Source: Vicinamibacterales bacterium (GTDB lineage: Bacteria > Acidobacteriota > Vicinamibacteria > Vicinamibacterales > 2-12-FULL-66-21). From it: a stretch of DNA of 64,000 nucleotides. Position numbers and translations under genes: made by a program. The stretch lies in NCBI GenBank assembly GCA_035250005.1, contig DATFFM010000073.1:3215-67214 (forward strand), written 5' to 3'. Below are positions 1,948 to 61,212 of this stretch, in pieces. How positions within the stretch are numbered: position 1 is the stretch's first letter; each line of letters opens with the position of its first letter. The notes under the pieces were generated by a model. It saw nothing but the letters and a program-made list of their open reading frames with translations, was not told the DNA's origin and did no database searches.

Positions 1948-1996
1948 CGTGCTGCGTGCTTCGTGCTGCCGTGTTCGTGCTGCCTGCGACGTGCCG
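1948..1996. repeat. degenerate heptamer tandem array (CGTGCTG)x7
   Basis: Consecutive 7-nt units: cgtgctg cgtgctt cgtgctg ccgtgtt cgtgctg cctgcga cgtgccg. It fills the gap between the acylase stop (2002) and the GNAT start (1930), both on the minus strand. Confidence 0.8.
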
Positions 1997-2001
1997 GGCA
2001 A

Positions 2002-4185: not shown

Positions 4186-4239
4186 GCCGCAGAGTGTAAC
4201 GGAGGCCTGGCCATCGTGTGTCCGCTGATCCATCTCCAG

Positions 4240-6663
4240 CTAGTCCGCCCGCAGGGCGACGATCGGATCCACGCGCGCGGCGCGCCTCGCCGGGACATAG
4301 GCGGCAGCAAGTGAGACGACCGCGAGCAGACCGGCGACCGCCACGAACGTCGCCGGGTCATGGGGGCTGGTGTCGAACAGCAGCTGCGCGACCAGCCACT
4401 CGGTCAGGAGAAACGCCGCGACGACGCCGATGAGCACGCCGCCGGAGGCCATGACCATCGCCTCGCGGACGATGAGGCCGAGCACGGCACGCTGTCGGGC
4501 CCCGAGCGCCATGCGAATACCGATCTCGCGTGTCCGCTGCGCCACCGCGTAGGAGAGCACGCCGAAGATCCCGATGGCGGCGAGCGTCAGCGCCACGCCG
4601 GCGAAAACCGCCAGCAGCGTCATGTAGAAGCGCGGCTGGGAAATCGAGCGCGCGACCAGCTCCTCGAGCGTGCGGACGTTGGCCACCGGCAGGTTGCCAT
4701 CCAGGGAATAGACCGCGCGGCGCGCCGGCTCGGCGACGCTGCCGGCCGGCACCGCGGTCTTCAGGACGAGACTCATGCCCTGAACCGGCCACTGGCGGTA
4801 CGCCAGATAGATCTGCGGGGGATCGGGCTCGTCGAGACCGGCATCCTTGATGTCACCGATGACGCCCACCACCTCTCCGCCGGCGCGGGGTCGGTTCGGC
4901 CCGCGTCCCCAGCCAAGCGTGATCTTCTTTCCGAGCGGGTCCTCATTGCGGAAGTACTGCTTCGCCGCCGCCTCCGTGATCAAGACGACCGGGGGTGTGT
5001 TGGAGCGGTCGTCCTCGGAAAAGAAGCGCCCCTTTCTCAGCGGAATACCGATGGTCTGAAAGTACTGCGGGGTTGCGACGCGCACCTGCATGGCGGGCTG
5101 CTGCGACGGCGGCACGGGCGGGCGTCCGGCCACTTCGAACGTCAGGACGATGCTGCTGCCGCTGAGCGGCAGCGACAGGACGGCCGCGGCGGCTTCGACG
5201 CCGGGGATGGCTTCGAGGCGCGGCAACAGGGCGTCAAAGAACGCCACCTGCTGGGCCTCCTCCGTGTAGCGGGCGTCCGGCAGTGACACCTCGAAGGTGA
5301 GTGCCTCCTGGACGCGAAAGCCGGGATCGACCGACGCCAGTCTGCTGAAACTGCGGATCAGCAGTCCGGCGCCTGCCAGCAGGGTCACCGCAAGCGCGAC
5401 CTCCGCAACCACCAGCGTCGTCCGCATGCGGGCGCCGCCGCGGGTGGTGAGCGCGCCGCGCGCGCCTTCCTTCAGCGTCGTTGAGATCCCGCTGCGCGTG
5501 GACTGGAATGCCGGAACCGCTCCGAACAGCAGACCGGTGATCAGCGCCAGGCCCATGGTGAAGCCGATCACCTCGACATCGACGCGCACTTCGCCAAGCC
5601 GCGGGACGCCCTGCGGCTCGAGCGCAATGAGCGCCTCGACGCCCCAGACCGCCAGCAGGAGGCCGAGCGCGCCCCCAACCAGGCTGAGGATCAGGCTTTC
5701 GGTCAGGAGTTGCCGGATCAGCCGCCAGCGGCCGGCGCCGAGGGCGGCGCGAACCGCGATCTCGCTCTCGCGGGAGGCCGCGCGCGCGAGCAGCAGATTC
5801 GCCACGTTCACGCAGGCGATCAGCAGCACGAACCCGACCGCGCCGAGCAGGATCCAGAAGGCGGTGCGCAGGTCGCCGACCATTGCTTCGTGGAGCGACA
5901 CCGCCGAGATGTCGACTCCCTCATTGCTGTCGGGATACTGTTTCGCCAGCTGTCGCCCGATCGTCTCGATCTCGGCGCGTACCTGCTCGACCGACACGCC
6001 CGGCCGGGTCCGGCCAACCGCCTGGAGGTACCAGGCGCCGCGCTGGGTCGTGGTCAGATTCTCCGAGTACTCCAGCGGCGTCCAGATCGCGCGCGCGGCG
6101 GGGAACGAGAACCTGTCCGGCATGACGCCAACGATTTCGTGCGCGACGCCGTCGAGGGTCAGGCGCTTGCCGACCGCCGCCGGATCGCCGCCGAACCGCT
6201 GCTGCCAGAGGGCGTAGCTGAGAATCGCGACGTGCGTCTTGCCCGGCTCGTTCTCGTCGGCACGAAAAGTCCGCCCGAGGTGCGCCGCCACGCCGAGCAG
6301 GTCGAAGAGGGAGGCACTGACCTCGGCGCCGTCCAGCCGGACAGGCTCCCCCCGGCCGGTCAGAATAGTGCGGCTCCGCGTGTAGGCTGCCGCGTCCCGG
6401 AGCGTGGTATTCAGCTTCCGGACGTCGGTGAAGTTCGGCCCCGACAACGGTGCGCGCCGCCCTTCGGAGAGATGGTAGAGGCCGACGATCTGGTGCGGAT
6501 CCTTATACGGCAGAGGCTGCAGCAGAACGGCATTGACGACGCTGAAGATCGCCGTGTTGGCCCCGATGCCGAGAGCCAGGGTGAGCAGGGCGACGACGGT
6601 GAAGGCCGGGCTCTTGATCAGCCGGCGGAAGGCATATCGAATATCGTGTCCGAGCGTGTCCAT
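4240..6663 (-). CDS. MacB/FtsX-type duplicated permease, ADOP-like (paralog 1, no prefix domain)
   Basis: Starts [41 protein letters not shown]. Two MacB-periplasmic plus FtsX modules, each with an RTREIG(I/V)R(M/A)ALGA loop. C-terminal [17 protein letters not shown]. Upstream part of ORF 4240..7002 rejected. Confidence 0.9.
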
Positions 6664-6832
6664 TGAATCCCCTGTCGCGGTGACGGCGAAGCCTGACCGG
6701 TGAGCCAACCGCGTGCCGACTGGCAGGAGCGGAGAAAAACCGCTATTTTCAGGTACTTTTCCATGGAAGATGACGCGTGGCTGGCGACCTGACGTCCGCG
6801 TCTGGTCACCGGCAATCCCGGAAACGAACAGC

Positions 6833-7399: not shown

Positions 7400-7404
7400 C
7401 GTGC

Positions 7405-7433
7405 TTGCACTCCAGTAACGATTCGTGTTATAT
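7405..7433 (+). promoter_or_regulatory. candidate sigma70-type promoter with imperfect palindrome upstream of padR-1
   Basis: TTGCAC (7405-7410) - 17 nt - TTATAT (7428-7433). The spacer holds TAACGAtTCGTgTTA. GAGG lies 6 nt before ATG 7460. AT-rich patch in GC-rich DNA. Confidence 0.4.
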
Positions 7434-7823: not shown

Positions 7824-10412
7824 ATGCCGCAGCCCCCCATCGTCGAGCGCCTCTACCGACTGCTGCTGCGCTGTTATCCCGGCGAGTTCCGCGACGACTA
7901 CGAGCGCGAGATGATGCGCGCCTTCAGGGAGCGCCTGGCGCACGATCGAGCGCTCGGCCCGGGCGCCGTGCTCCGCCTCGGTCTGCAGCTCCTGGTCGAC
8001 GCCGTCGTGCGCGCACCGCGGGAGCACCTCGACGTCCTTCGTCAGGACGGCAGGTACACCCTGCGCTCGCTCCGGAGTGCGCCGGTGTTCGCGATCACCG
8101 CGGTCGCGACCCTTGCGCTCGGTGTCGGGGCCAACACGGCCATCTTCTCTATCGTGCATGCCGTGGCGTTGAGACCGCTTCCGTACGAGGCCTCGGATCG
8201 CCTGGTGCGGATCTGGGAACGAAACGATTCACTGTCGATCCCCGATTTTGCGGTGTCGATGCCGAACTTCATCTCATGGCGCGAGCGCGCGACGACGGTC
8301 GACATCGTCGGCTGGCGCGGCGGGAGCGTGACGCTCCGCGGTCCTGGTGATCCGGTACGGGTTCAGTCGGTCAACGTGTCCCCCGATTTCTTCCGGTTGC
8401 TCGGGGTTACGCCGCTTGCCGGCCGCGTGCTGGTCGAGGCCGACACCGCTGCAAACGCCGGCAATCCGGCCCTGATCCGCGATTCGCTGTGGCGCGGTTA
8501 TTTCGGTGGGAGCCCGAACGTAGTCGGCAGCACGGTCACGATCGCCGGCCAGCCTTACACGATCGTCGGCGTCATTCCCGGGAGCAGCATCCCGCTCAGT
8601 GCGGAATTCTTCATGCCGCTGCGCTTCGATCCGACGACGGAAACGCGCGGCAACCGCATCGCCAACGTGATGGGCCGGCTGAAGCCCGGGTTCACGTTTG
8701 CTCAGGGGGAACAGGAGGTCCAGGCGATTGCCAGTCAACTGGAGTCGGAGTTCCCGGACTCCAACCGCAGATGGTCCATCACGATGACCTCGGTCTATGA
8801 CTGGCTGATCCCGGAAGAGACGCGGCGCGCGCTCTACGTTCTGCTCGGGGCCGTGGGCTGTGTGCTGCTCATCGCGTGCGCGAACGTGGCGAATCTGATG
8901 CTGGCGCGGACCGCCGCGCGCAGACGGGAGATGGCCGTCCGGCTGGCGATCGGTGCGGCGCGGCGCCGGCTCGTCAGGCAGGTCCTGACCGAATCGATGC
9001 TGCTGACCGCCCTCGGCGGAGCCGCCGGAATCCTGCTCGCGTACTGGGCCGTGCCGGTGATCCGGCAGTGGTTGCCGGAGACGCTCACCCGCGCCGATGA
9101 GGTGACAGTCAGCGCGCCGGTTCTCCTGTTTTCGTTCGGCGTCTGCATGCTGACCGGGCTCGCGTTTGCCGTGCTGCCGGCACTCGCGAGCTCCCGCGGG
9201 CATGTCACCGACTTCCTGAAAGAGGGCGGGCGCGGCAGCTCGGCGGCCGGCGCGACCCCCCGGCAGCTTCTCGCCGGGGCACAAGTCGCGCTCGCGACAC
9301 TCCTGCTGGTCGGCGCCGGCCTGTTCATCCAGAGCCTGCAACGACTGCAGCGCGTGGAGCTCGGCTTCGATCCACGCGGCATCACCACCGCGATGATGGG
9401 CGTACAAGGTGAACGGTTCGCGACGCAGGGCGGCCCCTGGAACCTCTTCTACCGGCCGCTGCTCGAACGTCTCGCCGCAGCGCCCGGCGTGGAGGGTGTG
9501 GCACTCTCCAGCGGCGCACCGTTTGGTGGAGGCAATACCGGCATGCCGATCAACGCCGTCGGCGACTCGCTGATGGGCGAGGCGGCGCTGCAGACCGACT
9601 GGCGGATGGTCAATCCGGACTACTTCAAGACCATGCGCATCCCCCTGCTGCGCGGCCGCTATTTCCGGCCCGGCGCCACCGACGAAAACGAGTTGATCGT
9701 CGCGGCGACGATGGCCAGGCGGATGTGGGGAGACGCCGATCCGATCGGCCGCCAGATCTCGGCGGGACCGAACGGCATCTGGACGGTGATCGGCGTCGTC
9801 GGCGACGTCCGGAACCTGGACCTCTCGCTCGCGCCGGCGCCGACGATGTACCTGTCGACGACCCGTTTCGTGTGGCCGACGATGACAGTCATCGTTCGCG
9901 CGGGCGAAGGGGCTCAGCCGGCAGCGCTGCTCCGCAACGCCGTTCGCGAACTGGATCCGCAGCTGGCGGTCTTCAACGTCCGTGAGATGGAGGCGCTGAT
10001 CGACGACAGCGCGGCCCAGCCACGGCTCAGTGCGTCGGTCGTGGGGCTGTTCGCCGGGATCGCCGCGGTGCTGGCCGCGATCGGCATCTACGGCGTGCTG
10101 GCGTATCTCGTGTCGCAGCGGACGCAGGAAATCGGCATCCGCATGGCGCTGGGCGCGAGCCGGCCCGCCGTGCTTCGACTTTTTCTCGGGCGCGGTCTGG
10201 TGCTCACGGCCGGCGGCCTGGTCGCAGGAGTCGCGGGGTCGCTCGCGATCTCGCGATGGGTGGGATCGCTGTTGTTCGACGTCCAGGCCAAAGATCCCTG
10301 GACCATTGCCATCGCCGGCAGTACGGTCGCGGCGGTGGCCCTGATCGCAGGCTACATTCCGGCCCGCCGCGCCACCAGGGTCGATCCGCTCACTGCGCTC
10401 CGGGCCGAGTAG
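7824..10412 (+). CDS. ADOP-like duplicated permease with N-terminal prefix domain (paralog 2)
   Basis: ATG 7824 lies 4 nt after the padR stop. About 70-aa extension MPQPPIVERLYRLLLRCYPGEFRDDYEREMMRAF... precedes [35 protein letters not shown]. Two FtsX modules. C-terminal PARRATRVDPLTALRAE. Confidence 0.9.
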   Translation: MPQPPIVERLYRLLLRCYPGEFRDDYEREMMRAFRERLAHDRALGPGAVLRLGLQLLVDAVVRAPREHLDVLRQDGRYTLRSLRSAPVFAITAVATLALGVGANTAIFSIVHAVALRPLPYEASDRLVRIWERNDSLSIPDFAVSMPNFISWRERATTVDIVGWRGGSVTLRGPGDPVRVQSVNVSPDFFRLLGVTPLAGRVLVEADTAANAGNPALIRDSLWRGYFGGSPNVVGSTVTIAGQPYTIVGVIPGSSIPLSAEFFMPLRFDPTTETRGNRIANVMGRLKPGFTFAQGEQEVQAIASQLESEFPDSNRRWSITMTSVYDWLIPEETRRALYVLLGAVGCVLLIACANVANLMLARTAARRREMAVRLAIGAARRRLVRQVLTESMLLTALGGAAGILLAYWAVPVIRQWLPETLTRADEVTVSAPVLLFSFGVCMLTGLAFAVLPALASSRGHVTDFLKEGGRGSSAAGATPRQLLAGAQVALATLLLVGAGLFIQSLQRLQRVELGFDPRGITTAMMGVQGERFATQGGPWNLFYRPLLERLAAAPGVEGVALSSGAPFGGGNTGMPINAVGDSLMGEAALQTDWRMVNPDYFKTMRIPLLRGRYFRPGATDENELIVAATMARRMWGDADPIGRQISAGPNGIWTVIGVVGDVRNLDLSLAPAPTMYLSTTRFVWPTMTVIVRAGEGAQPAALLRNAVRELDPQLAVFNVREMEALIDDSAAQPRLSASVVGLFAGIAAVLAAIGIYGVLAYLVSQRTQEIGIRMALGASRPAVLRLFLGRGLVLTAGGLVAGVAGSLAISRWVGSLLFDVQAKDPWTIAIAGSTVAAVALIAGYIPARRATRVDPLTALRAE

Positions 10413-11689: not shown

Positions 11690-14110
11690 TCAGTCGTTCC
11701 TCAACGCCACGATCGGGTCGACCGCCATCGCACGGCGGGCCGGAAGGTAGCTGGCGAGCGCCGCGATGATCGTCAGGAACAGAGCCACACCGCCGAAGCT
11801 CACCGGATCGGTCGGCGTGACGTTATAGAGGATCGACTGGATGATCCACGTGACCGCGGCCGCACCGACGAGGCCGCCGGCGATCCCCCACGCCGCGAGA
11901 CGCAATCCCTGCCCGACGATGAGCCGAAGGACGTCATGGCGCCCGGCGCCGAGCGCCAGCCGCACGCCGATCTCCTGGACGCGCTGCGACACCGAATACG
12001 ACAGCACACCGTAGACGCCGATCGATGCCAGCACGAGCGCGATGAAACCAAACGTCGCGAACATCGATCCAAACAGCCCGTACTGCCAGTAACTGAGGCG
12101 CCGCAGCTCTTCGACCGTCGTGACCGCGAACATCGGCAAGGTCGGATCCGAGAGGCGCAGCTGCTCGCGAACCGCCGACGTGATCTGCGCCGGGTCGCCC
12201 GCCACGCGGATCGTCAGCCCGGTGTTCAGCGTCGTCTCAAATGGATACGGCACGTAGGCGGCCGGCTCCTGCGGCTCCGTGTCACCGCCTTGCCGGTGCC
12301 GGAAATCGGCAACGATACCGATGACGGTGAACCAGTCCTGCGTGGAGCCATCCACCAGATGGAACCGGCGGCCGACCGGATCGGACCCGGGCCAGAGGCG
12401 CTGGGCCATCGCCTGATTGACCAGCGCCACGGGCGTACGGGTGGCCCCCTCTGCATTGGACATGTCCCGGCCGGCGACCAGCGCCACGTCGAGCGTCTGG
12501 CGCATGTGGGGGGTCACGCCGATCAGCTCGATTCCGGGTTCCCGGCCGGGTTCGACGGCGTTCCCCTCGACGATCACCCGCCCGCCACCGCCGCCGGCGC
12601 CCATCGGCACGAAGTTGGAGGCAAAGGCGGCCTGCACGCCGGGCAGCGACTCCACCCGGCGGACGATATCTTCCACTCGCCGCGCCTTGGCTTCGGCCGG
12701 TTCGTAGGCCGCGCCCGGCAGGTAGAACCGCATCGACATCAGCGGGCCGGTGTCGAAACCAACGGCCGCCCCCTGAAGGTTGAGAAAGCTGCGCACGAAC
12801 AGCGACGCGCCCACCAGCAGCACGAGCGACAAGGCGACCTCGCTGATGACGAGCGTGTTGCGCAGGCGCGCCCTGGAACCGCCGGCATGACCCCGGCCAC
12901 CGTCCTTCAGGCTGCTCTGCAGGTTCGTGCGCAGAGCCTGCATCGCCGGCGCGAGGCCGAAGACCAGTCCGGTGAGCAGCGAGATCGCGGTCGTGTACGC
13001 CAGCGACCGGGCGTTGAGGCTCCAGCTGATGAAGTACGGCACCTGGTCGGGAGGCATCGCCCCGTCGACCAGCCGGACACCGATCCACGCAATGGCCGCA
13101 CCGAGCGGCCCGCTGATGCACCCGATCATCACGGCCTCGGTCAGGAGCTGCCGGACGATCCGCCACCGGCCGGCGCCGAGCGCCAGCCGGATCGAGATCT
13201 CACGCTGCCGCACCGAGGCCCGTGCGAGAAGCAGGTTCGCGACGTTCGCGCATGCGATCAGGAGCACCAGCGTCACGGCGCCCATCATCGTCAGGAGCAC
13301 GAGCTCGACCTGTTGGGGCAGCATCCATTCGCCGAGCGTGCGCGTCGTGACGCTCCAGCCGGCGTTCTCGCGCGGATACGCGGTCGCCAGACGGGCCGCA
13401 ATGCCCGAGAGCTCGCTCTCGGCCTGCTGCTGCGAGACGCCCGGCTTGAGCCGCGCGAAGACGGAATGGATGGCTCCACGGGCGTCGCGCGGGGTGGCGT
13501 CCTGGTAGGGCGCGATCGTCACCCACAGCCGCTCGTTCTCGGGGAAGAGAAAACGTTCGGGCATTACGCCGATGATCGTGTGGGGTTTGCCGTTGACCAT
13601 GATGGCGCGGCCGACGATCGCCGCGTCCTTCTGGTAGCGCAGTTCCCAGAGCTCGTGGCTGAGGAGCACGACCGGTTCGGCCCCCGGCTTGTCGTCATCC
13701 GGCATGAAATCGCGTCCAGCGACCGGACGCATGCCGAGCAGGCCGAACAGATTCCAGCTGACCGTGGCGCCCGAAAAGCGTTCCGGCTCGCCTCTGCCGT
13801 CCGAGATCGTGAGGCTGCGGTTGGCAAACGCGGCGATCGATGCGATGGTCGAGGAGGAGTCGCGGATGTCCTTGAAGTCGGCGTACGAGAGCGTCCCCCT
13901 GGAAATGCGCTGCTCGTGATTGCGCGCATGCACCACGATGATGCGTTCCGGTTCCGGATATGGATACGGGCGCAGGATGACGCCGTCGATCACGCTGAAG
14001 ATCGTGGCATTGACGCCGATGCCCAGGGCCAGGCAGGCCACCGCAACCGCAGTGAAACCCGGACTTTTGACGAGTGAACGGAAGGCGTACCGAACGTCCT
14101 GCCTCAGCAT
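11690..14110 (-). CDS. ADOP-like duplicated permease (paralog 3, no prefix)
   Basis: 806 aa. Starts MLRQDVRYAFRSLVKSPGFTAVAVACLALGIGVNATIFS. Two FtsX modules (QREISIRLALGA, VQEIGVRLALGA). C-terminal [17 protein letters not shown]. Confidence 0.9.
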   Translation of the reverse strand: MLRQDVRYAFRSLVKSPGFTAVAVACLALGIGVNATIFSVIDGVILRPYPYPEPERIIVVHARNHEQRISRGTLSYADFKDIRDSSSTIASIAAFANRSLTISDGRGEPERFSGATVSWNLFGLLGMRPVAGRDFMPDDDKPGAEPVVLLSHELWELRYQKDAAIVGRAIMVNGKPHTIIGVMPERFLFPENERLWVTIAPYQDATPRDARGAIHSVFARLKPGVSQQQAESELSGIAARLATAYPRENAGWSVTTRTLGEWMLPQQVELVLLTMMGAVTLVLLIACANVANLLLARASVRQREISIRLALGAGRWRIVRQLLTEAVMIGCISGPLGAAIAWIGVRLVDGAMPPDQVPYFISWSLNARSLAYTTAISLLTGLVFGLAPAMQALRTNLQSSLKDGGRGHAGGSRARLRNTLVISEVALSLVLLVGASLFVRSFLNLQGAAVGFDTGPLMSMRFYLPGAAYEPAEAKARRVEDIVRRVESLPGVQAAFASNFVPMGAGGGGGRVIVEGNAVEPGREPGIELIGVTPHMRQTLDVALVAGRDMSNAEGATRTPVALVNQAMAQRLWPGSDPVGRRFHLVDGSTQDWFTVIGIVADFRHRQGGDTEPQEPAAYVPYPFETTLNTGLTIRVAGDPAQITSAVREQLRLSDPTLPMFAVTTVEELRRLSYWQYGLFGSMFATFGFIALVLASIGVYGVLSYSVSQRVQEIGVRLALGAGRHDVLRLIVGQGLRLAAWGIAGGLVGAAAVTWIIQSILYNVTPTDPVSFGGVALFLTIIAALASYLPARRAMAVDPIVALRND

Positions 14111-14157: not shown

Positions 14158-14243
14158 ACTCCAAACCTCAAACTTCAAACTCCAAACCTCCAAACTCCGA
14201 ATTGAATCTCGTTTTGGAGTTTGAGGTTTGGAGTTTGAAGTTG
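14158..14243. repeat. heptamer-built imperfect palindrome (ACTCCAA family); probable terminator hairpin
   Basis: Left arm 14171-14198 (aacttcaaactccaaacctccaaactcc) pairs with right arm 14214-14242 (ttggagtttgaggtttggagtttgaagtt), about 27 bp with one bulge. Both arms are made of 7-nt units. It sits between two minus-strand genes. Confidence 0.8.
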
Positions 14244-14250: not shown

Positions 14251-14679
14251 TCAGAAGCGAAACAGCGGACGGCCGGCGGGGAGCCCGGGCCAGGGGATCG
14301 ACGCCAGGATCGCGAGCAGCGCCAGGCCGTAGAAGATCGCGGCCACTCGCGCCTTGCGGTCGTCTCGCGCCTTCCGCACCCGGGCGCGCCCGACGTGCGC
14401 GAGAGCGGTGCCGATCAGTACACCGAAGACGTGCTCGACCGCGAAGAATCGAAGCTGCGGAACCTTCATCGCCCCGCCGAAGTCGTCCAGTGCGGCGCCG
14501 GTAACCGGGCTCAGCGCGAAATACAGCAGGAGGCCGACCAGCAGTTGAACGTCGAGCAGAATAGTGAACCACTTGCCGGCCCGCTCGTCGCGCGAGCCCC
14601 CCCGAACGACGGCAATCAGACCAGCCGCGAGGACGGCCCAGCGCAGCCAGGAGTGGACGAGCAGGGTGAGTCCGTACAT
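14251..14679 (-). CDS. hypothetical integral membrane protein
   Basis: 142-aa ORF with 4 clear hydrophobic helices (LLVHSWLRWAVLAAGLIAVV, ILLDVQLLVGLLLYFAL, HVFGVLIGTALAHV, AIFYGLALLAILASI). No family recognised. Confidence 0.55.
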   Translation of the reverse strand: MYGLTLLVHSWLRWAVLAAGLIAVVRGGSRDERAGKWFTILLDVQLLVGLLLYFALSPVTGAALDDFGGAMKVPQLRFFAVEHVFGVLIGTALAHVGRARVRKARDDRKARVAAIFYGLALLAILASIPWPGLPAGRPLFRF

Positions 14680-16190: not shown

Positions 16191-17896
16191 CGCCCGAAGC
16201 GCAACAGACCCGGCTGCTGGCGCGGACGTTCTTTTCGCGCCTGTTCGAGACCGACCTCATGACCAGCAGCCACGGTCAGGTGCAGCTCGTCATCTCGGTC
16301 ATCGTGTTCCTCGCCGCCCCGGCATTGATCCTGCCCATCCTCGTCTCGAAGAAGTACTTCCGAATCAGGGATCCCGACCTGCTGCTCGCCGCGATGGCGC
16401 AGGACCGGACGATGGCGCTGCTGCTGGCGACGGTCGCGACCGCCATGATCACGCTGGTGCTCTGGGAGAACGTCTTTCCGGACCAGCGCGACAGCCGCCA
16501 CCTGGGCGTGCTCCCGATCAGGCAGCGGTCGTTCGTCCTGGCGAGGATGATCGCGATGGTTGCACTTTTCGTCATGTTGTTCCTCGGCACGACGGCGCTG
16601 GCCGCGGTCACGTTCGGCCTGACCGGTAGCATGTTCCACGCGTCAGGCGGCTTCTTTCGGATCGCGTTCGCCCACTTCATCGCGGTGGCCGGCGCGGAAG
16701 CGTTCGTCTTCTTCAGCCTGGTCATGCTGCAGTGCGCCCTGATGAGCATCGCGGGACCCGGCCTCGCCCATCGATTCGCCGTCGTCCTGCAGGTCGTGTT
16801 CGTCGTCACGGTGCTGCAGACCCCATTGCTGCTGCCCGGGCGTGAGGCTTTCCTCGCCGGCGGCGGCGGTGCGCCGCCGTGGTCGCAGGCGGCAACCGTC
16901 TGGGCACTGCCGCCCATGTGGTTTCTGGCCTTGTTCGAGTTCCTCGCACGGGGCGGTTATCCAGGAACCCGTGGGCTCGCGACGCTTGCGGCGATCGCCG
17001 GAGGCGGCACTCCGATCCTGGCGCTGGCGTTCTACGCCGCAAGCTACGGCCGCTTGACACGGCTGGCGATAGAAGGACGGCCGCTCCCGAAGGGACGCTC
17101 GACGCCCCTCCTGGCACGGGGCGTCTCGGCGGCGGTACGCGCGACCACGTCCGTGCCGGTTACGGCTGCCGTCTGCGCCTTTACGCTTCGAACGCTGGCA
17201 CGCAGCCGCCAGCATCGCATGCTCCTCGCCGGATGGATCGGCGTGGCGACGGCGTTCATCATTTCGTCGATCCTGCCGGTGGCCGTCCGGGTCGGGTGGA
17301 GTGCGTTCGAAAGACCTCACGCCGCCGTACTCGTCGGCCCGCTCATCCTTTCCGCACTGACGATCACCGGGATGCGGATGTTGTTCGCGCTCCCGGTCGA
17401 GATCCGTGCGAACTGGACGTTCCGGCTCCGGGAACCGGTAACGGTGTCGGAGGCCGTGAACGGGGCCGAGGCGGCGCTGGTCATCTGCGGCGTCCTGCCC
17501 GCGGTCGTATTGGCGCTCGTCTCTGCCGGATGGCTCTGGGGCATCACGGCCGGGCTGATGCACGCCGTGTTCTGCGGCGTGATGGCGATGACCGCCGTTC
17601 AGTTCCTGATGCGCGGCGTCGACAAGATCCCGTTCACGTGTACGTATTTTCCAGGCAAGGCACAGATCGGCAAGTTCTGGCCCCTCTATCTCACCGCCTT
17701 CACGACATTCACCTATTCGGCGGCCTTCTCCGAAGTGGCGTTGCTCGAGTCTCCCGTCGGGTACGGCGCCGCTGTCGTGGTTCTCGGACTGACGGGGGGC
17801 GCGCTCGCCTGGAGCCGGCGGCGCGATACGGCGCTGCTGCCCAACCTGCGATTCGAGGAAGAGCCCATGGACGGCTTGACGGTCATGTCCTTCTGA
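16187..17896 (+). CDS. large polytopic membrane protein, putative permease partner of the ABC ATPase
   Basis: 569-aa ORF whose start overlaps the ATPase stop (ATGA at 16187-16190). At least 10 hydrophobic segments. No conserved motif recognised by eye. Confidence 0.65.
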   Translation: MTPEAQQTRLLARTFFSRLFETDLMTSSHGQVQLVISVIVFLAAPALILPILVSKKYFRIRDPDLLLAAMAQDRTMALLLATVATAMITLVLWENVFPDQRDSRHLGVLPIRQRSFVLARMIAMVALFVMLFLGTTALAAVTFGLTGSMFHASGGFFRIAFAHFIAVAGAEAFVFFSLVMLQCALMSIAGPGLAHRFAVVLQVVFVVTVLQTPLLLPGREAFLAGGGGAPPWSQAATVWALPPMWFLALFEFLARGGYPGTRGLATLAAIAGGGTPILALAFYAASYGRLTRLAIEGRPLPKGRSTPLLARGVSAAVRATTSVPVTAAVCAFTLRTLARSRQHRMLLAGWIGVATAFIISSILPVAVRVGWSAFERPHAAVLVGPLILSALTITGMRMLFALPVEIRANWTFRLREPVTVSEAVNGAEAALVICGVLPAVVLALVSAGWLWGITAGLMHAVFCGVMAMTAVQFLMRGVDKIPFTCTYFPGKAQIGKFWPLYLTAFTTFTYSAAFSEVALLESPVGYGAAVVVLGLTGGALAWSRRRDTALLPNLRFEEEPMDGLTVMSF

Positions 17897-17904: not shown

Positions 17905-17945
17905 AACTCCCAAACTCCAAACTCCAAACTCCAAACTCCAAATGC
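17905..17945. repeat. heptamer tandem array (AAACTCC)n, same family and orientation as the left arm of 14158-14243
   Basis: aactccc aaactcc aaactcc aaactcc aaactcc aaatgcc, directly after the stop of the 569-aa membrane protein. Confidence 0.85.
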
Positions 17946-17983
17946 CCAGCTTCAAACGGCCAGGTTGAGACGAAAGCTGCGTG

Positions 17984-18013
17984 TTGACGCTAGTATCACT
18001 TTGATACTAGTAT
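17984..18013 (+). promoter_or_regulatory. candidate promoter plus perfect 9-3-9 palindromic operator upstream of padR-2
   Basis: TTGACG (17984-17989) - 18 nt - TAGTAT (18008-18013). CTAGTATCA-ctt-TGATACTAG (17990-18010) spans the spacer and the -10. Only 6 nt separate the -10 from ATG 18020, so the mRNA is probably leaderless. Confidence 0.5.
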
Positions 18014-18019
18014 CCCCGC

Positions 18020-18385
18020 ATGGCCAAGGCTTCCCCCCGGTACAATACCGAACAGCATCTCCCACTGAAACCGCTGGTCTTCCAGGTACTCCTTGCGCTG
18101 GCCGAGGGTGAGCGCCATGGGTGGAGTCTCGTGCGCGACGTCCAGCAGCGCGGCGGCTTCGGCCGGCTGATGCCGGGCAATTTCTACCGCACGCTGCGGT
18201 CCATGCTCGCGGACGGCTTCATCGAAGAGTGCCCGTCACGCCCGGCGGCGACCGACGACGACGAGCGCCGACGCTACTTCCGGCTGACGGCACTCGGTGA
18301 ACAGGTCGCGATCGCGGAAGCGAAGCGCCTGGAGGCTGCCGTGCTCGAGGCGCGCGCCCGAAAACTCCTGACGCGGCGGGGATGA
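18020..18385 (+). CDS. PadR-family transcriptional regulator (module 2)
   Basis: 121 aa. [23 protein letters not shown]...[18 protein letters not shown]...[10 protein letters not shown]. Confidence 0.9.
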
Positions 18386-21938: not shown

Positions 21939-21980
21939 GGCATTCGGCATTCAGCGTTCAGCGTTCAGCGTTCAGCATTG
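21939..21980. repeat. heptamer tandem array (GGCATTC)2(AGCGTTC)3 AGCATTG
   Basis: Six consecutive 7-nt units between the amidohydrolase stop (21996) and the alpha/beta-hydrolase start (21909). Confidence 0.85.
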
Positions 21981-23693: not shown

Positions 23694-23728
23694 ATGCATC
23701 CAGCGTTCAGCGTTCAGCGTTCAGCCTT
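23694..23728. repeat. heptamer tandem array ATGCATC(CAGCGTT)3 CAGCCTT, direct copy of the 21939-21980 family
   Basis: Same unit and orientation as 21953-21973. It supplies the TGA stop (23721-23723, minus strand) of the PAP2 gene. Confidence 0.85.
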
Positions 23729-32285: not shown

Positions 32286-32924
32286 GTGGCTGAAGATGCA
32301 GTGGTGCCGCTCAAGGACCTCGAACGAACGCTCCGCGTGAAACTCGCCGAAACGCTCCCCGGCGTCGAGGCGCAGATGCGGTTCGCGCCGGCGCTTGCGG
32401 GCACGGGATGGAGGGCCGGGCACTTCCCCGAGGATTCGCGCGCCGCCGCAGCCCTGCTGTTGATCTATCCAGGGGCCGCCGGCCCGGCGATTCCGCTGAC
32501 CGTGCGCGCGAGCGGCCTCGCGCGTCACGCGGGTCAGATCAGCCTGCCGGGCGGCGCCGTGGATCCGGGTGAGACCCTGGCCGAAGCGGCCCTGCGCGAG
32601 GCGCATGAAGAGATCGGGATCCACCCGTCAAGCGTGCAGATCCTTGGCGAGCTCACGCCCGTCCACGTGCTGGTCAGCGGCTTCACGCTTCACCCGGTCG
32701 TGGGCGTATCGCACAGCCGCCCTTCGTTCGAGCCCGCCGCAGGTGAGGTCGCCGAGATCCTCGAACTGTCGCTCGACCATATCCGGGACGCATCGAGCAT
32801 CCGGCGCGGGACGCGCCTCCGGGAAGGCGTGGCCGTCGAGTATCCGTATTTCGACCTTTTCGGCCACCAGGTCTGGGGGGCCACGGCGATGGTCCTGGGA
32901 GAGTTTGTGTGTCTGATCGGTTGA
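32286..32924 (+). CDS. NUDIX hydrolase (CoA pyrophosphatase-like)
   Basis: Nudix box LPGGAVDPGETLAEAALREAHEEIGI. GTG start. 212 aa. Confidence 0.8.
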   Translation: MAEDAVVPLKDLERTLRVKLAETLPGVEAQMRFAPALAGTGWRAGHFPEDSRAAAALLLIYPGAAGPAIPLTVRASGLARHAGQISLPGGAVDPGETLAEAALREAHEEIGIHPSSVQILGELTPVHVLVSGFTLHPVVGVSHSRPSFEPAAGEVAEILELSLDHIRDASSIRRGTRLREGVAVEYPYFDLFGHQVWGATAMVLGEFVCLIG

Positions 32925-32970
32925 TCGGTCGATCAGCCGATCGGTCGATCAGCCGATCACCCGATCACCC
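32915..32970. repeat. octamer tandem array: seven GATC sites at exact 8-nt spacing
   Basis: GATCGGTT GATCGGTC GATCAGCC GATCGGTC GATCAGCC GATCACCC GATCACCC. GATC begins at 32915, 923, 931, 939, 947, 955 and 963. The array spans both convergent stop codons (32922-24 and 32965-67) and contains nested palindromes (TGATCGgtCGATCA, CCGATCGG). Confidence 0.85.
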
Positions 32971-48708: not shown

Positions 48709-50763
48709 ATGGAACTACTGACCCCTGGCAACATCGCCGCTTACAGTGCCCAGGTCCTCTCGATCGTCGCGCTCGCCAGCGTGATGTGGTGGCTGCTGCG
48801 CATCGACGTCGCGCCGGTGAGATATGGCTACTGGCGTGTGATCCTGCTCGTGTGCCTCCTGCTGCCCCTGCTTCAGGGCCGGCAGATGCCCTCGGCCCCG
48901 GAGACAGAGTCCGTCGCTCGAGCAGAAACGGAGATTGGCGTTGCCGCCATCGAGGCAGCCGCCGTCGCCGCTCGCCTCGACTGGACGTCGATGATCCTGC
49001 CGCTTCTGGCCGCCGGCGCAGGTGCGCGGTTTCTGTGGATCGCCTTCAGCCTGATCCGGCTCCGACGTCTCCGCCGCGCCGGCCATCGCGCTCCCGAGTC
49101 GGAGATCCACGCCGAGCTGCGGGGCCTCATCGGCACCCGGTGCGAGATCCGTTACGTGGCGCGGCTCCGCCAGCCGGTGACCTTCGGCTTCTGGCATCCG
49201 GTCATCCTCCTGCCCGCCGGCCTCGCGAACCGCAGCTCGGACATCCAGCGCGCCGTCCTCAGCCACGAGCTCTTTCATGTGAAGCGGCGCGACTGGGGCT
49301 GGCTCGTCGCGGAGGAGCTCGTCTGCGCCCTGCTCTGGTTCAATCCCGCCGTGTGGTGGGTGGTCTCGCGCGTACAGCTGGCGCGCGAGGTCGTCGTCGA
49401 CGAACTGGCGGTGCTCGCGACCGGGCGGCGGCGCGCCTACGTCGAGGCGCTGATGACGTTCGCCGACCAGACATCCCTCGCGCCGGTTGCCGCCTTCGGC
49501 AGCCGTCGTCAGTTGTTCAACCGGATCGTGTCGCTCTCAAAGGAGGCGGTGATGTCTTCGCATCGGCTCGTATTCACCTGCGGCGTGATGGCGGCGGCCC
49601 TGGCAGCGGGCAGCTGGCAGGCGGTCAGCGCGTTTCCGTTGACTGCCGCCCCTCAAGTGCAGGTGGTCCGGCAGAACACCCCGGGGCCGCTCGAGCAGCG
49701 GGCGAAGCCGGTGACGCCCGAGAATCCCGTGCCTCGCCGGGTCAACTACGAGGCGCCGATGTACCCGTTCGAAGCCCAGGCCGCGGGTGCGACTGGCACC
49801 GTGACGCTGATGATCACCCTCGACGAGCTGGGACGGGTGGCTGAAGCGAGGCGGATCCGGCTTTCGCTGTCGTCGACGAACCCTCAGGTGAGACTGACGT
49901 TCAGCGGCAGCAATCCGGAAGACGAACAGCGCTTCGTAGTGAACCGGAGCCCCCAGCAATCGGATGCCGTGCGGGCCATTGCCGAAGCCTTCACCGACGC
50001 CGCCGTGCGCGCCGTTCAACAGTGGCGGTACGACCCGCCCGCCGCCGGGCCGATTTCGTTTCCGGTTGCGATCAACTTCTCCGGTGACGGAGACCGGACC
50101 ACGGCCATCCAGGGCACGGCGGCCAGAAGCGCCGACACCAACTCGACCTGGACCGAGGGGGCGCTTCGCATCGGCGGCAACATCAAGACGCCGAAGAAGC
50201 TCCGCGACGTCCGCCCGGTCTATCCCCCTATCGCACAGGCAGCGAACGTCAGCGGGGTAGTGATCATCGAGGTTCGTGTCGGCCCGGAAGGCTTTGTCGA
50301 AGATGCGCGCGTCCTGCGGTCCGTCCCCCTCCTCGATCAGGCCGCGCTCGACGCCGTCCTGCAGTGGCGTTTCGCGCCGACGCTGCTGAATGGCAGCCCG
50401 GTGCCGGTGATCATGACGGTGACGGTCAATTTCACCCTGCAGTCCGACGACGCCGTGCGCGTCAGCCCGGATCCGCCAGTCGTGAAGGTGGCCGCTGGGA
50501 CGCTGCAGGGGCGCCGTGGGCCGACGTTGATCAAGCACGTCCACCCCAGCTACACGAGCGAAGCAATGAGAGCGGGCATCCAGGGCATCGTCGAAGTCGA
50601 AGCCACGATCGGGACGGAGGGGAAGGTCGTGGACGCACGTGTAATCCGCGGCCTGCCGATGCTCGACGAATCCGCGCTCGCGACGGTCCGCCAATGGGAG
50701 TTCACGCGGCCGGCGGAACCGGTCAGGGTAACCATCGAGCTCGCGTTTTCGCTGCGACGGTAG
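48709..50763 (+). CDS. BlaR1-like M56 metallopeptidase sensor fused to three TonB C-terminal domains
   Basis: GAGGAG lies 5 nt before ATG 48709. TM helices plus HELFHVKRRDW (HExxH). Three TonB_C-like units: YPFEAQAAGATGTVTLMITLD..., VYPPIAQAANVSGVVIIEVRVGPEGFVEDARVLRSVPLLDQAALDAVLQWRF..., YTSEAMRAGIQGIVEVEATIGTEGKVVDARVIRGLPMLDESALATVRQWEF. Confidence 0.85.
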   Translation: MELLTPGNIAAYSAQVLSIVALASVMWWLLRIDVAPVRYGYWRVILLVCLLLPLLQGRQMPSAPETESVARAETEIGVAAIEAAAVAARLDWTSMILPLLAAGAGARFLWIAFSLIRLRRLRRAGHRAPESEIHAELRGLIGTRCEIRYVARLRQPVTFGFWHPVILLPAGLANRSSDIQRAVLSHELFHVKRRDWGWLVAEELVCALLWFNPAVWWVVSRVQLAREVVVDELAVLATGRRRAYVEALMTFADQTSLAPVAAFGSRRQLFNRIVSLSKEAVMSSHRLVFTCGVMAAALAAGSWQAVSAFPLTAAPQVQVVRQNTPGPLEQRAKPVTPENPVPRRVNYEAPMYPFEAQAAGATGTVTLMITLDELGRVAEARRIRLSLSSTNPQVRLTFSGSNPEDEQRFVVNRSPQQSDAVRAIAEAFTDAAVRAVQQWRYDPPAAGPISFPVAINFSGDGDRTTAIQGTAARSADTNSTWTEGALRIGGNIKTPKKLRDVRPVYPPIAQAANVSGVVIIEVRVGPEGFVEDARVLRSVPLLDQAALDAVLQWRFAPTLLNGSPVPVIMTVTVNFTLQSDDAVRVSPDPPVVKVAAGTLQGRRGPTLIKHVHPSYTSEAMRAGIQGIVEVEATIGTEGKVVDARVIRGLPMLDESALATVRQWEFTRPAEPVRVTIELAFSLRR

Positions 50764-58529: not shown

Positions 58530-58577
58530 GTGTGCCCTCCTGCTCCTGTTGATCTTCAACAGAAGCCTGCCGTCGCT

Positions 58578-58596
58578 CATGTTGGACGTCAACATG
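58578..58596. promoter_or_regulatory. 7-5-7 inverted repeat, candidate PadR operator in divergent intergenic region
   Basis: CATGTTG-gacgt-CAACATG contains ATGT-N9-ACAT, close to the ATGT-N8-ACAT type reported for PadR operators. It lies between padR-3 (start 58529, minus strand) and permease paralog 7 (start 58676, plus strand). Confidence 0.5.
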
Positions 58597-58675
58597 AGCG
58601 GAAAGGTTGCGGGCACCCCGCACGATTTCTTTGTTCCGACGAACGCGGAGTGGCCGAAACACGTCAAACTGGCCT

Positions 58676-61141
58676 ATGGACCGTCTCGTTCAGGACCTTC
58701 GCTTCGCCGTCCGCGTGCTCCTGAGGGATCGCGCCTTCTCCATCACGACCCTGCTGACGCTCACCGTGTGCATCGGCGCCAATGCGGCGATCTTTGCCGT
58801 GGTCAACTCGGTGCTCCTTCGGCCGCTCCCCGTGCCGGATGCGGACCGGCTCATGCTCCTCTACAACAGCTATCCGAAGGCCGGGGTCGTGCGGGCCAGC
58901 TCCGGCGTGCCGGACTATTACGACCGGCTCCGCGAGACCGACGCATTCGAAGAGCTGGCGCTCTATCAGCAGCGTGGGATGACGATCGGGAGCCAGGGCA
59001 GTGTCGAGCGCGTGAGCGCCATGGCGGCCCGGCCGTCGCTCTTCCGCATGCTGCGCGCAGGTGCGGCCAGAGGGCGCCTCTTCTCGGAGGACGACGGGGA
59101 ACTTGGAAAGGAACGCAAGGTCGTTCTGAGCCACGCGCTCTGGCAGCGGGTGTTTGGCGGCCGCGACTCGGCGATCGGGCAGGACCTTCGGATCAACGGC
59201 GTCCCTTACCAGATCGTCGGGGTGATGCCCGAGAGGTTCCACTTCATGTCGGCCGACATCACGCTCTGGATCCCGCTCGCCTTCAACGCGGAACAGCGTT
59301 CGGATGACGCGCGCCACAGCAACAGCTGGACGATGGTCGGGCGGTTGAGGCCCGGCGCCGGCGTGCAGCAGGCGCAGCAGCAGATCGACGCGCTGAACGC
59401 CCGGAACCTCGAACGCTTCGCCAACATGAAAGAGATCCTGGTGAACGCCGGCTTCCATACGGTGGTGACGCCGCTCCAGGAAGAGATGGTGCGCGAAGTC
59501 CGGCGCACGCTGCTCCTGCTGTGGGGCGGCGTGCTGTTCGTGCTGGCGATCGGGGCGGTGAACATCACCAACCTGGTGCTGATCCGCTCGACCGCGCGCC
59601 TGCGGGAGCTGGCGACACGGCACGCGCTCGGCGCCGGCCTCGGCCGGCTGACCCGACAGCTGCTGACGGAAACGGTCCTGCTGACGGTGGCCGGCGGCGC
59701 TCTCGGCGCGGTGGCAGGCTACTGGGGCATGACCCTGCTCACGGAACTCGGCATCGACTCCCTGCCGCGCAGCGCGGAGATCCGGATGGACGGCACCGTG
59801 GTCGCCTTCACCATGGCACTGGCGCTCGCGGTTGGCGTGCTGGTCGGCCTCGTCCCCGTGTTGAATGTGCGAAGGATGAATCTCAGCCAGGCGTTTCGCG
59901 AAGAGAGCCGCAGCGGCACGAGCGGCCGGGGCGCGCGAGCCGTCCGGCGCCTGCTGGTCGCCAGTCAGGTGGCCTTTGCCTTCATGCTGCTGGTCGGCGC
60001 CGGGCTGCTGTTTGCGAGCTTCGAGCGCGTGCTCGGCGTCCACCCCGGGTTCGAAGCCGACGGGCTCCTGACGGCGCGCGTCTCGCCGCCGGCGTCCCGT
60101 TATGCCGACGACCCGCAGACGCAGGCTTTTGCCGACCGCTTCCTGCAGTCGATTCGGGCGCTGCCCGGCGTCCAGGCCGCCGGGATCACGTCGGTGATCC
60201 CGTTCGGCGGCGACTTCGACGACAGCGTCATCCTCGCCGAGGGATATCAGATGGCCCCCGGCGAGTCGCTGATCTCTCCGTACCAGGTATCCGCCACGCC
60301 GGGGTACATGGAAGCGCTGAAGGTCCCTCTGAAGAGCGGGCGGTTTTTCACCGACGGCGATACGCCGACCTCCCCGCGCGTGGTGATCGTCGACGAAACG
60401 CTGGCGAAGAAATTCTGGCCGGGCCAGGACCCGGTCGGCCGGCGGATGTTCAAGCCCCAGAACCCGGACGACTTCACGAGGCCAGGTGCGAACACCCAAT
60501 GGATCACGGTCGTCGGGGTCGTCGGCGAGACCAGGATGGCAGGTCTGGTCACGTCGGAGACCCGGGTCGGCACCTATTACTTCCCCACCACGCAGGACGG
60601 CCTGCGTACCATGACGCTCGCGATTCGCACCAGCGGGGATCCCCCGTCGATCACCGGAGCGGTCCGCCAGGCCCTGGCCGCAATCGACCCGGAGCTGCCG
60701 CTCTACAGCGTGCGGACGATGCGGGCCAGGATCGATGAAACGCTGATGGATCGCCGCACGCCGATGCTGCTCGCGGTCGTGTTCGGCATCGTCGCGCTGC
60801 TGCTCGCGGCGATGGGTCTCTACGGCGTGCTCGCCTACCAGGTCGCGCAGCGGCGGAAGGAGATCGGGATCCGGATGGCGCTCGGCAGCGAACCGTCCCG
60901 GATCTTCAGCCTGGTCCTGCGCGAAGGCATCACGCTGCTGGGGATCGGCCTGGCCGCCGGCATCGGGGGCGCGCTGGCGATCCGCCGTGCGATGGAGTCG
61001 CAGCTCTACGGCGTCAGCGCCATGGATCCGCTGGTTCTCGCCAGCGTCGCCGGCGTGCTCGGCCTGGTTGCGCTCGTGGCGTGCGCCGTGCCGGCACGGC
61101 GCGCGTCCCGGATCGACCCGATGACGGCGCTCGCGGAGTGA
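58676..61141 (+). CDS. ADOP-like duplicated permease (paralog 7, no prefix)
   Basis: ATG 58676: MDRLVQDLRFAVRVLLRDRAFSITTLLTLTVCIGANAAIFA. Two FtsX modules ([24 protein letters not shown]). C-terminal PARRASRIDPMTALAE. Confidence 0.9.
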   Translation: MDRLVQDLRFAVRVLLRDRAFSITTLLTLTVCIGANAAIFAVVNSVLLRPLPVPDADRLMLLYNSYPKAGVVRASSGVPDYYDRLRETDAFEELALYQQRGMTIGSQGSVERVSAMAARPSLFRMLRAGAARGRLFSEDDGELGKERKVVLSHALWQRVFGGRDSAIGQDLRINGVPYQIVGVMPERFHFMSADITLWIPLAFNAEQRSDDARHSNSWTMVGRLRPGAGVQQAQQQIDALNARNLERFANMKEILVNAGFHTVVTPLQEEMVREVRRTLLLLWGGVLFVLAIGAVNITNLVLIRSTARLRELATRHALGAGLGRLTRQLLTETVLLTVAGGALGAVAGYWGMTLLTELGIDSLPRSAEIRMDGTVVAFTMALALAVGVLVGLVPVLNVRRMNLSQAFREESRSGTSGRGARAVRRLLVASQVAFAFMLLVGAGLLFASFERVLGVHPGFEADGLLTARVSPPASRYADDPQTQAFADRFLQSIRALPGVQAAGITSVIPFGGDFDDSVILAEGYQMAPGESLISPYQVSATPGYMEALKVPLKSGRFFTDGDTPTSPRVVIVDETLAKKFWPGQDPVGRRMFKPQNPDDFTRPGANTQWITVVGVVGETRMAGLVTSETRVGTYYFPTTQDGLRTMTLAIRTSGDPPSITGAVRQALAAIDPELPLYSVRTMRARIDETLMDRRTPMLLAVVFGIVALLLAAMGLYGVLAYQVAQRRKEIGIRMALGSEPSRIFSLVLREGITLLGIGLAAGIGGALAIRRAMESQLYGVSAMDPLVLASVAGVLGLVALVACAVPARRASRIDPMTALAE

Positions 61142-61212
61142 ATCCCTGATCCCTAATCCCTAATCCCTAATCGATCAGGGATCAGGGATCAGGGATTAGG
61201 GATTAGGGATTT
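61141..61212. repeat. heptamer-built 64-nt palindrome / G-quadruplex motif between convergent genes
   Basis: (AATCCCT/GATCCCT)4-atcgat-(CAGGGAT)3(TAGGGAT)2. Positions 61141-61172 pair with 61173-61204 (32 pairs, 3 mismatches, 1 G-T). Five G3 runs with 4-nt loops at 61178-61208, and four C3 runs at 61144-61167. It touches the permease stop and contains the glnS stop. Confidence 0.85.

Follow-up and report, generated by a model that had tools for sequence, protein, structure and literature searches.

Heptameric tandem repeat arrays just past gene stop codons in a Vicinamibacterales genome and their turnover among relatives

Repeat arrays and their gene junctions

The DNA studied here is a 64,000-nt stretch of contig DATFFM010000073.1 (positions 3,215 to 67,214) from the metagenome-assembled genome of a Vicinamibacterales bacterium, an uncultured soil-type member of the phylum Acidobacteriota, hereafter the window, and the subject is a set of seven short tandem repeat arrays, A1 to A7, located at junctions between its genes. 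GC content is 64-69% across the whole window and the genome is very compact, with ~95% coding sequence; a gene map refined with further gene calls leaves 3289 of the 64000 nt (~5.1%) intergenic, and 7/7 arrays fall within this fraction. The arrays are heptameric intergenic simple sequence repeats (SSRs), one of them octameric, a known class in a new lineage. Tandem Repeats Finder (TRF) and direct reading of each array place them where an earlier, sequence-only reading of this DNA had listed them:

A1, 1948-1996, minus strand: degenerate direct array of ~6-7 units, TRF 1947/1948-1994, unit CGTGCTG, 74-82% matches
A2, 14158-14243, both strands: palindromic, arm (AACTYCA)x4.5 and mirrored arm (TGRAGTT)x6; TRF 14158-14198 and inverted 14213-14242, unit ACTCCAA
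A3, 17905-17957, plus strand: direct (AACTCCA)x5.3 with 96% matches (TRF 17905-17942), then decayed units to 17957
A4, 21939-21980, minus strand: direct, TRF 21940-21979, GCRTTCA x5.7; in sense (ACGCTGA)x4 and (ATGCCGA)x2
A5, 23694-23728, minus strand: direct, TRF 23701-23725, CAGCGTT x3.6, 100% matches; in sense (CTGAACG)x3.6
A6, 32915-32970, both strands: 8-nt units (GATCNNNN)x7 with a self-complementary 16-nt super-unit; TRF extends to 32971
A7, 61141-61212, both strands: palindromic (RATCCCT)x5 / (GATYAGG)x6; TRF 61141-61172 (AATCCCT) and inverted 61173-61210 (GATCAGG)

A strict self-match scan of the window over periods 4-12 returned five arrays, all of period 7, whereas 40 first-order Markov simulations of the window gave 0. 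By TRF, six of the seven loci have period 7; A6 has a period of 8/16 and not 7. Copies per array or arm number 3.6-5.7 at six of the seven loci. A1 had been listed as (CGTGCTG)7; the array is degenerate. The label of palindrome, previously given to A2 and A7, fits both and applies to A6 too. At least five unrelated units occur within the 64 kb (TRF), and arrays with the same unit are neighbours, the two pairs lying 1.7 and 3.7 kb apart.

Confinement to gene junctions, which had been claimed for the arrays, is borne out by comparison with the genes themselves: the sole period-7 signal that TRF found in coding sequence is weak (49602-49630, score 35). Arrays occupy 7/20 spacers of at least 15 nt that hold a gene 3' end, comprising 5/18 codirectional spacers and 2/2 convergent spacers of such size, and 0/8 divergent spacers in the window. 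Every array lies within 15 nt of a stop codon. For the stops at 2002, 14251, 17894 and 21996 the distance to the array is 5, 7, 8 and 15 nt, respectively; repeat units enclose four further stops (23721, 32922, 32965 and 61189), and a fifth, at 61139, directly adjoins the repeat. The frequent contact with stop codons is thereby confirmed (five stops abut or lie within an array), and the common period together with the common placement at gene 3' ends supports treatment of the arrays as a single class.

In the sense of the upstream penicillin-amidase gene (assigned by Pfam), A1 reads (CAGCACG)n and sits between the stop of that gene (2002-2004) and a 197-aa open reading frame (ORF) that starts with GTG at 1930. 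A TATAAT hexamer (1941-1946, minus strand) abuts A1 10 nt upstream of this GTG, without a Shine-Dalgarno sequence between hexamer and start; this suggests a candidate leaderless or near-leaderless mRNA, and A1 takes up the position expected for the -35 element. A2 begins past the stop of a 142-aa ORF (14251-14253) and ends 47 nt ahead of an ADOP-type permease start. Direct reading shows the variant units of its arms in mirrored order (TTCA, TCCA, CTCA, TCCA), which is the expected product of inverted duplication of an existing array. A3 follows the stop of a 569-aa ORF (17894-17896) and lies upstream of a putative PadR promoter and operator. A4 and A5 flank one gene; the former begins past the stop of the upstream amidohydrolase gene (21996-21998), and in the latter the TGA stop of the upstream PAP2 gene (23721-23723) is part of a repeat unit. 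A6 fills the spacer of convergent NUDIX and PQQ-propeller genes, both of whose stops (32922-32924 and 32965-32967) it contains, and is the densest GATC cluster of the window, with 7 sites in 56 nt (32915-32966). A7 fills the spacer of convergent ADOP-type permease and GlnRS genes, with the permease stop (61139-61141) abutting and the GlnRS stop (61189-61191) within.

That the arrays could be assembly artefacts is ruled out for A1-A5, which are reproduced without indels, at 99.9-100% identity, in same-population contigs L001, L002 and L207 from two other ENA assemblies. A1 is identical in L207, and A2 and A3 are identical in L001; the A3 locus of L002 is 99.9% identical and without indels, but array bases differ (TRF matches of 83% vs 96%). 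Nor are the arrays CRISPR, as had already been noted: the units are 7-8 nt long and contiguous, without spacers, as opposed to repeats of 23-50 nt split by unique spacers of similar length. A known RNA family was likewise rejected, Rfam at gathering thresholds giving 0 matches over the whole window, arrays included. As a general explanation, a role as three-frame stop 'safety nets' was discarded because only four or five of the seven units hold a sense-strand stop, and those of A1 and A3 hold none.

Turnover at orthologous junctions

Four syntenic contigs, L083, L084, L085 and L086, were reached through homologues of the amidohydrolase that lies between A4 and A5; their protein identities are 93, 91, 87 and 86%, respectively. 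For the A7 junction the relatives were L210 (88% identity) and L209 (87% identity). The junctions that carry A2 to A5 in the window, J2 to J5, compare as follows:

J2 (A2): window, palindrome; L085, 3.5 direct units; L086, (CTTCCGG)x7 directly after the TGA
J3 (A3): window, AAACTCC in five direct copies, unstructured; L085, two units with a further two inverted, hairpin z -5.4
J4 (A4): window, ACGCTGA/ATGCCGA; L085, (ATGCGGA)x4; L084, ATGCCGA and an inverted arm; L083 and L086, none
J5 (A5): window, (CTGAACG)x3.6 including the stop; L083 and L084, one CTGAAYG copy at the stop

Comparison with related genomes had been proposed as a check, and across L083-L086, L209 and L210 an orthologous junction may have or lack an array, while the unit, the number of copies and the arrangement of arms differ as well. 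The description of the arrays as slippage-prone therefore holds in an evolutionary sense, since copy number, unit and arm arrangement vary among syntenic relatives. Presence, unit, copy number and predicted fold all shift within 7-14% protein divergence.

The array at J5 grew in place from a stop-holding heptamer, as L083 and L084 carry a single copy there; to judge from these alignments, A5 was born at its present site from a heptamer containing the stop codon. Only L084 continues directly from the single copy into the conserved ATGCATTAAGATC anchor. In L085 an 11-nt-period array (CTGTGTTTCYC, ~5 copies; 4675-4745) is situated between the conserved anchor and the ribosome-binding site. A comparable local resemblance is found at J2 in L086, where CTTCCGG is similar to the final codons of the gene that it follows. 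L086 additionally contains a large inverted ACGTGCG/AGCACGT array, which belongs to the unit family of A1, at a junction that in the window is a 12-nt spacer.

Copying over short range is indicated by the two AACTCCA arrays 3.7 kb apart and by A4 and A5, which at a distance of 1.7 kb have 29/30 nt in common (21945-21975 and 23697-23727). The tract common to A4 and A5 consists of GCTGAACGCTGAACGCTGAACGCTG, then R, then ATGC, and the A5 site in the relatives already holds GCTGAATGC natively, which suggests homology-anchored conversion between the two junctions.

A further difference between junctions concerns another type of repeat. A GC-rich REP-like hairpin (CCCGCCGTAGCGCG.AGGCGAAGGCGGGCG) occurs at two junctions of L086 (9970-10000 and 14405-14440) and is absent at the matching junctions of the window.

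The A7 junction and the GlnRS C-terminus

The last seven codons of the GlnRS gene (KSLIPNP) are encoded by the repeat arm of A7 (61189-61212, minus strand). GlnRS relatives (P0121-P0240) have the conserved end ...KDSWA[KR]IA[AN]R; in the window the tail is repeat-encoded instead and the conserved Trp is lost. Repeat arrays in this way explain odd C-terminal tails, as for GlnRS here. L210 has the canonical GlnRS tail, a 5-nt spacer and no hairpin. The GlnRS of L209 ends in ...KDTAKSLIR, of which AKSLIR falls on AAATCCCTGATCCGGTAG (2245-2262); this sequence equals two A7 repeat units, and both stop codons abut directly. No heptamer arrays were found in 12.3 kb of L209 or in 10.9 kb of L210. The hairpin predicted for A7 is the strongest of the window (below) and, by this comparison, is dispensable in close relatives.

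On the plus strand the A7 arm at 61173-61212 contains six GGG tracts with 4-nt loops, and so has the four or more G3 tracts with short loops of a quadruplex-competent motif; the other arrays are without G-tracts. Its units are GGGATCA and GGGATTA, neither GGGAATC nor GGGGA(C/T)T.

RNA structure and terminator searches

RNA folding, scored as z against the shuffles of each array, predicts long hairpins for A2, A6 and A7 (-38 to -61 kcal/mol, z -4.4 to -8.5). The A2 hairpin has -54.8 kcal/mol (z -6.8), the A6 hairpins have z -4.4 and -5.5, and those of A7 have -59 and -61 kcal/mol (z -8.2 and -8.5). For A1, A3, A4 and A5 less structure is predicted than for the respective shuffles, with z from +0.6 to +2.4 (A1 +1.7, A3 +1.3, A4 +2.4). 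No U-tract follows the hairpins at A2, A6 and A7. Three 20-kb scans for intrinsic terminators (GC-rich stem-loop and U-tract), covering ~94% of the window, reported no array, and the terminator-like sites of the window are at shuffle frequency and all within coding sequence. As no array combines a hairpin with a U-tract, canonical terminators were rejected. At A2 and A3 the sense strand that follows is composed of 8% G and 34-40% C, with 8% G across the 50 nt after the stop at A3; A1, A4 and A5 are neither C-rich nor G-poor. Since low G in sense is confined to A2 and A3, Rho entry was rejected as a general role.

The earlier suggestion that the arrays serve as terminators, attenuators, protein-binding platforms or recombination sites is not supported. 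There is no terminator match, four arrays are less structured than shuffles, presence and fold are not kept at a given junction, and the A7 junction of relatives has spacers of 0-5 nt without structure. In annotation the arrays should not be called CRISPR, terminators or regulatory RNAs.

Heptamer arrays in other genomes

For comparison, GlnRS loci were taken from 80 genomes of many phyla as an unbiased sample, and these loci, the window and the syntenic relatives were pooled into a set of 1.49 Mb. In the pooled set, 33 arrays of at least three copies have period 7, compared with 10 of period 8, 6 of period 9 and a single one of period 6. The window is dense in this respect, with 7 loci in 64 kb vs ~1 per 87 kb in the 80-genome sample. 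Outside the window, in the 80 GlnRS loci and L083-L086, a stop is found no more than 26 nt away for 14/22 heptamer arrays in intergenic DNA, as against 21.6% of random intergenic segments (p = 2.6e-5).

Four of the sampled genomes, from unrelated phyla (Chloroflexia, Acidobacteria, Sumerlaeota and Bacteroidales), have heptamer arrays of differing unit at or just past the glnS stop, which lies inside the unit in L018, L027 and L030:

L018, 11699-11745
L027, 1790-1912
L030, 2458-2503
L072, 6955-7013

A specific link with the 3' end of glnS looked striking by the strict scan, but at the level of TRF it amounts to 4/80 genomes vs 16/~1300 gene ends (p = 0.025), which is weak, and it was set aside.

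A metagenome scan for (AACTCCA)3 matched at least 120 contigs with 27-70% GC. Since it occurs over such a range, (AACTCCA)n is not lineage-specific, and AACTCCA as a family particular to this lineage is ruled out. Among the metagenome matches listed, 21 arrays abut the stop of an ORF with a length of 100 aa or more; 19 of these have GGAGTTT in sense and 2 have AACTCCA, and frequently the stop forms a variant of the unit that differs by one base, TAGGAGT. The window and L085 carry the minority orientation, with AACTCCA in sense. Several metagenome (GGAGTTT)n arrays (L105-L204) end a few nt ahead of the next start, where the last GGAG could be a ribosome-binding site. Others precede a second array of a different heptamer, similar to the STRR sequences of cyanobacteria. 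Several matches carry several unit types adjacently, which is not so in the window; one of them, L198, with a GCGATCGC motif, looks cyanobacterial.

Relation to described repeats

The sequence-only reading had asked whether the arrays form a described repeat class, and they do, namely that of heptameric SSRs (PMC4692102, PMC4679880). Heptameric SSRs are over-represented in many bacterial genomes, notably large GC-rich ones, and polymerase slippage has been suggested as their source (Mrazek, Guo & Shah 2007, as relayed in PMC4692102). By the same relayed account, period 7 outnumbers periods 4-11 among long SSRs, which are typical of large, GC-rich, non-pathogen genomes. So far as these long SSRs are described there, the window arrays match them in head-to-tail 7-nt units, period-7 excess and non-coding concentration; they differ in their high density and in coming from a phylum previously undescribed as far as literature searches show. 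These searches found no published account of such arrays in Vicinamibacterales or Acidobacteriota. With this window, a soil lineage of Acidobacteriota joins the small number of groups in which heptamer repeats are known to abound.

Parallels in placement are the GGGAATC repeats of Xanthomonas and the GGGGAYT repeats of Nostoc, which are intergenic and lie within 50 bp of a stop or overlap it (Rehm et al. 2015, PMC4692102). They favour aligned ORFs, are rare between divergent ones and form 70-75 convergent inverted pairs per genome; they are transcribed, differ in length and sequence among close species, and have no identified function (PMC4692102). The window arrays are like them in their proximity to or overlap with stops, their absence from divergent spacers, their inverted pairs (A2 and A7) and their variability. 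The G3N4 pattern of the Xanthomonas repeats forms a G-quadruplex (G4) in vitro (PMC4692102), and the A7 arm (GGGATYA) has the same layout. Xanthomonas, however, has one dominant unit genome-wide, whereas the window has at least five unrelated units, mostly without G-tracts.

Arrays of TAACTGA occur in Beggiatoaceae, cyanobacteria and Bacteroidetes, are intergenic with 2-6 copies, and have been proposed to have RNA-binding protein partners (MacGregor 2015, PMC4679880). Both these and the window arrays are abundant intergenic heptamers whose mechanism of spread is not established; TAACTGA arrays are mostly a few nt upstream of starts in forward orientation, whereas the window arrays lie just past stops and have other units. 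The cyanobacterial STRR sequences of Calothrix and Nostoc comprise several different tandem heptamers per genome, dispersed intergenically and of no known function, and differ from the window arrays in phylum and in units.

In Haemophilus influenzae the hmw repeat (ATCTTTC)n lies in the 5' untranslated region (UTR) and pairs with a complementary arm, giving an RNase III-processed hairpin that controls expression; change in its copy number needs transcription and RNase III (PMC12721329). A2 and A7 share this architecture of a 7-nt array and complementary arm with a long predicted RNA hairpin. The hmw array, however, has at least 11 copies, is hypervariable in populations and controls an adhesin by way of RNase III, whereas the window arrays are at gene 3' ends, have 3.6-6 copies and neighbours of housekeeping type, and show no polymorphism in three assemblies. 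REP and BIME sequences are similarly short, are found at gene 3' ends or between convergent genes and form transcript hairpins. REPs, however, are dispersed copies of one imperfect palindrome, while the window has tandem arrays of differing units, 4/7 of which are unable to form a hairpin.

Origin of the arrays and alternative explanations

The account we consider probable, though with some reserve, is that the arrays are products of slippage and template switching which were made and remodelled in place and are tolerated just 3' of genes, without a conserved function. While the class, the placement, the turnover and the origin in place are demonstrated, we infer the mechanics and the lack of function; the arrays are probably without a fixed function. 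Slipped-strand mispairing would expand a short local sequence, often a stop-holding heptamer or the last codons of the gene, and the first unit would retain a working stop codon. Intrastrand template switching would add an inverted arm and turn a direct array into a long hairpin, and short-range conversion would copy units between adjacent junctions. Arrays would collect 3' of stops because, in a compact genome, this is nearly the sole place where a change of +/-7 nt harms no frame, promoter or ribosome-binding site. Transcript effects would be by-products, in the form of double-stranded 3'-UTR stems (A2, A6 and A7) and unstructured tracts (A1 and A3-A5, of which only A3 is G-poor). The junctions provide clear examples of an array born from a stop-holding heptamer and of direct arrays converting to hairpin arrays. 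Arrays of this kind are also likely sites of contig breaks or copy-number errors in short-read metagenome-assembled genomes.

Several observations weigh against slippage and template switching as the whole explanation. For A1-A5, copy number does not vary among the same-population assemblies (window, L001, L002 and L207, a small sample of short-read assemblies), so that instability is seen only between lineages. Birth of each array purely from local sequence would not lead one to expect a unit to recur at separate junctions, yet in the window and in L085 alike AACTCCA is present at A2 and at A3, and the ACGTGCT family is present at A1 and at another junction of L086. Nor does slippage alone account for a preference for 7 nt over 5, 6 or 8. 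The sense-strand bias of (GGAGTTT)n (19/21 among the matches listed) points to selection or to a mechanism at the level of transcription or translation.

Of the alternatives, the one that survives best, while still unlikely as a general explanation, is that the arrays are functional 3'-end RNA elements. A2, A6 and A7 would be bidirectional factor-dependent terminators or RNase III/exonuclease-blocking stability structures, and the unstructured direct arrays would either be points of Rho entry or serve to insulate operons at their boundaries. Every array does lie in transcribed territory just past a stop, both convergent spacers of more than 12 nt are filled by palindromic arrays with stems of z -4.4 to -8.5, and the region is without canonical terminators, which implies that something else must end transcripts. 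The sense strands of A2 and A3, poor in G and rich in C, are rut-like, with A3 unstructured and located just ahead of a putative independent promoter and operator; the H. influenzae heptamer hairpin, processed by RNase III, provides a precedent for control of expression (PMC12721329). However, no U-tract lies past any hairpin, A1, A4 and A5 lack the base composition of A2 and A3, and arrays are missing from 13/18 codirectional spacers of 15 nt or more. J2, J3 and J4 alternate between hairpin and unstructured forms among relatives, and in L209 and L210 the stops of the same convergent genes are 0-5 nt apart, with no hairpin present. This explanation is weakened because presence and fold are not conserved, yet individual arrays, especially A2, A3 and A7, may have a 3'-end RNA role.

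Doubtful, and less likely again, is an expansion process tied to transcription, or to the termination of translation, that would seed heptamer arrays at stops and be common to bacterial phyla. Room for such an origin is left by the preference for 7 nt, by units that recur at different loci and by the strand bias. It would fit the excess near stops in the 80 unrelated genomes, the stop as a variant of the unit and the 19:2 bias of GGAGTTT among the matches listed, as well as the need for transcription and RNase III in copy-number change in H. influenzae. If true, a molecular ruler within the machinery responsible would set the period at 7 nt.

We regard as quite improbable a role as contingency or 'rheostat' loci, in which arrays in codirectional spacers would belong to the promoter or 5' UTR of the gene that comes next and tune its expression by copy number, as at H. 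influenzae hmw. The 7-nt unit of hmw in a 5' UTR is a precedent (PMC12721329), 17-34 nt separate the ends of A1, A4 and A5 from the following start codon, and A1 abuts the TATAAT upstream of its GTG. Yet the arrays are always closer to the upstream stop than to the downstream start, two lie between convergent genes with no downstream gene, and the divergent spacers, which hold promoters only, have none. Copies number 3.6-6 vs at least 11 at hmw, neighbours are housekeeping or metabolic genes, and copy number is not polymorphic in the three assemblies.

Slightly less probable still is that a trans-acting mobile element, reverse transcriptase or binding protein installs or favours heptamers at gene ends as dispersed or templated elements. 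The same units do occur at different junctions and in relatives, one dominant genome-wide unit is known elsewhere (GGGAATC in Xanthomonas, TAACTGA in Beggiatoaceae; PMC4692102, PMC4679880), and the strand bias of (GGAGTTT)n is strong among the metagenome matches listed. Against it stand the number of unrelated units in 64 kb, the adjacency of same-unit pairs, which fits local conversion, and the fact that at J5, in the GlnRS tail and at J2 of L086 the units can be traced to ancestral sequence of the site itself. Terminal inverted repeats, target duplications and transposase or reverse transcriptase genes are lacking beside the arrays, and (AACTCCA)n is too widely distributed over GC content to be lineage-specific.

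Least probable of all are sites acting at the DNA level, such as a G-quadruplex or i-motif at A7 (six GGG tracts at 4-nt spacing, matching G3N4; PMC4692102), GATC methylation or binding clusters at A6 and A7 (A6 has its 7 GATC in a window with 637 vs 457 expected from dinucleotide frequencies) or recombination hot spots, because G-tracts are found only at A7 and GATC richness only at A6 and A7, the other five arrays have neither, and arrays are missing at the same junctions in relatives.

Other features of the window

Housekeeping genes in the window include those for IMP dehydrogenase and GlnRS, and no tRNA genes were found in the 64 kb. At least six paralogous genes for ADOP-type duplicated MacB_PCD/FtsX permeases are present, several with a PadR gene before them or as partner, a local expansion that is striking and typical of Acidobacteriota:

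4240-6663, ADOP-type permease gene
7824-10412, ADOP-type permease gene
11690-14110, ADOP-type permease gene
18382-21051, ADOP-type permease gene
25010-27502, ADOP-type permease gene
58607-61141, ADOP-type permease gene

The sole promoter-like site in the first 20 kb, TTGACG-18-TAGTAT (17984-18013), is upstream of a PadR gene beyond A3. It overlaps a perfect palindrome, ATACTAGTAT..GATACTAGTAT (17984-18015), which is kept in L085 (10355-10385, minus strand) and, from its position upstream of the PadR gene in a PadR/permease pair, is probably a PadR operator.

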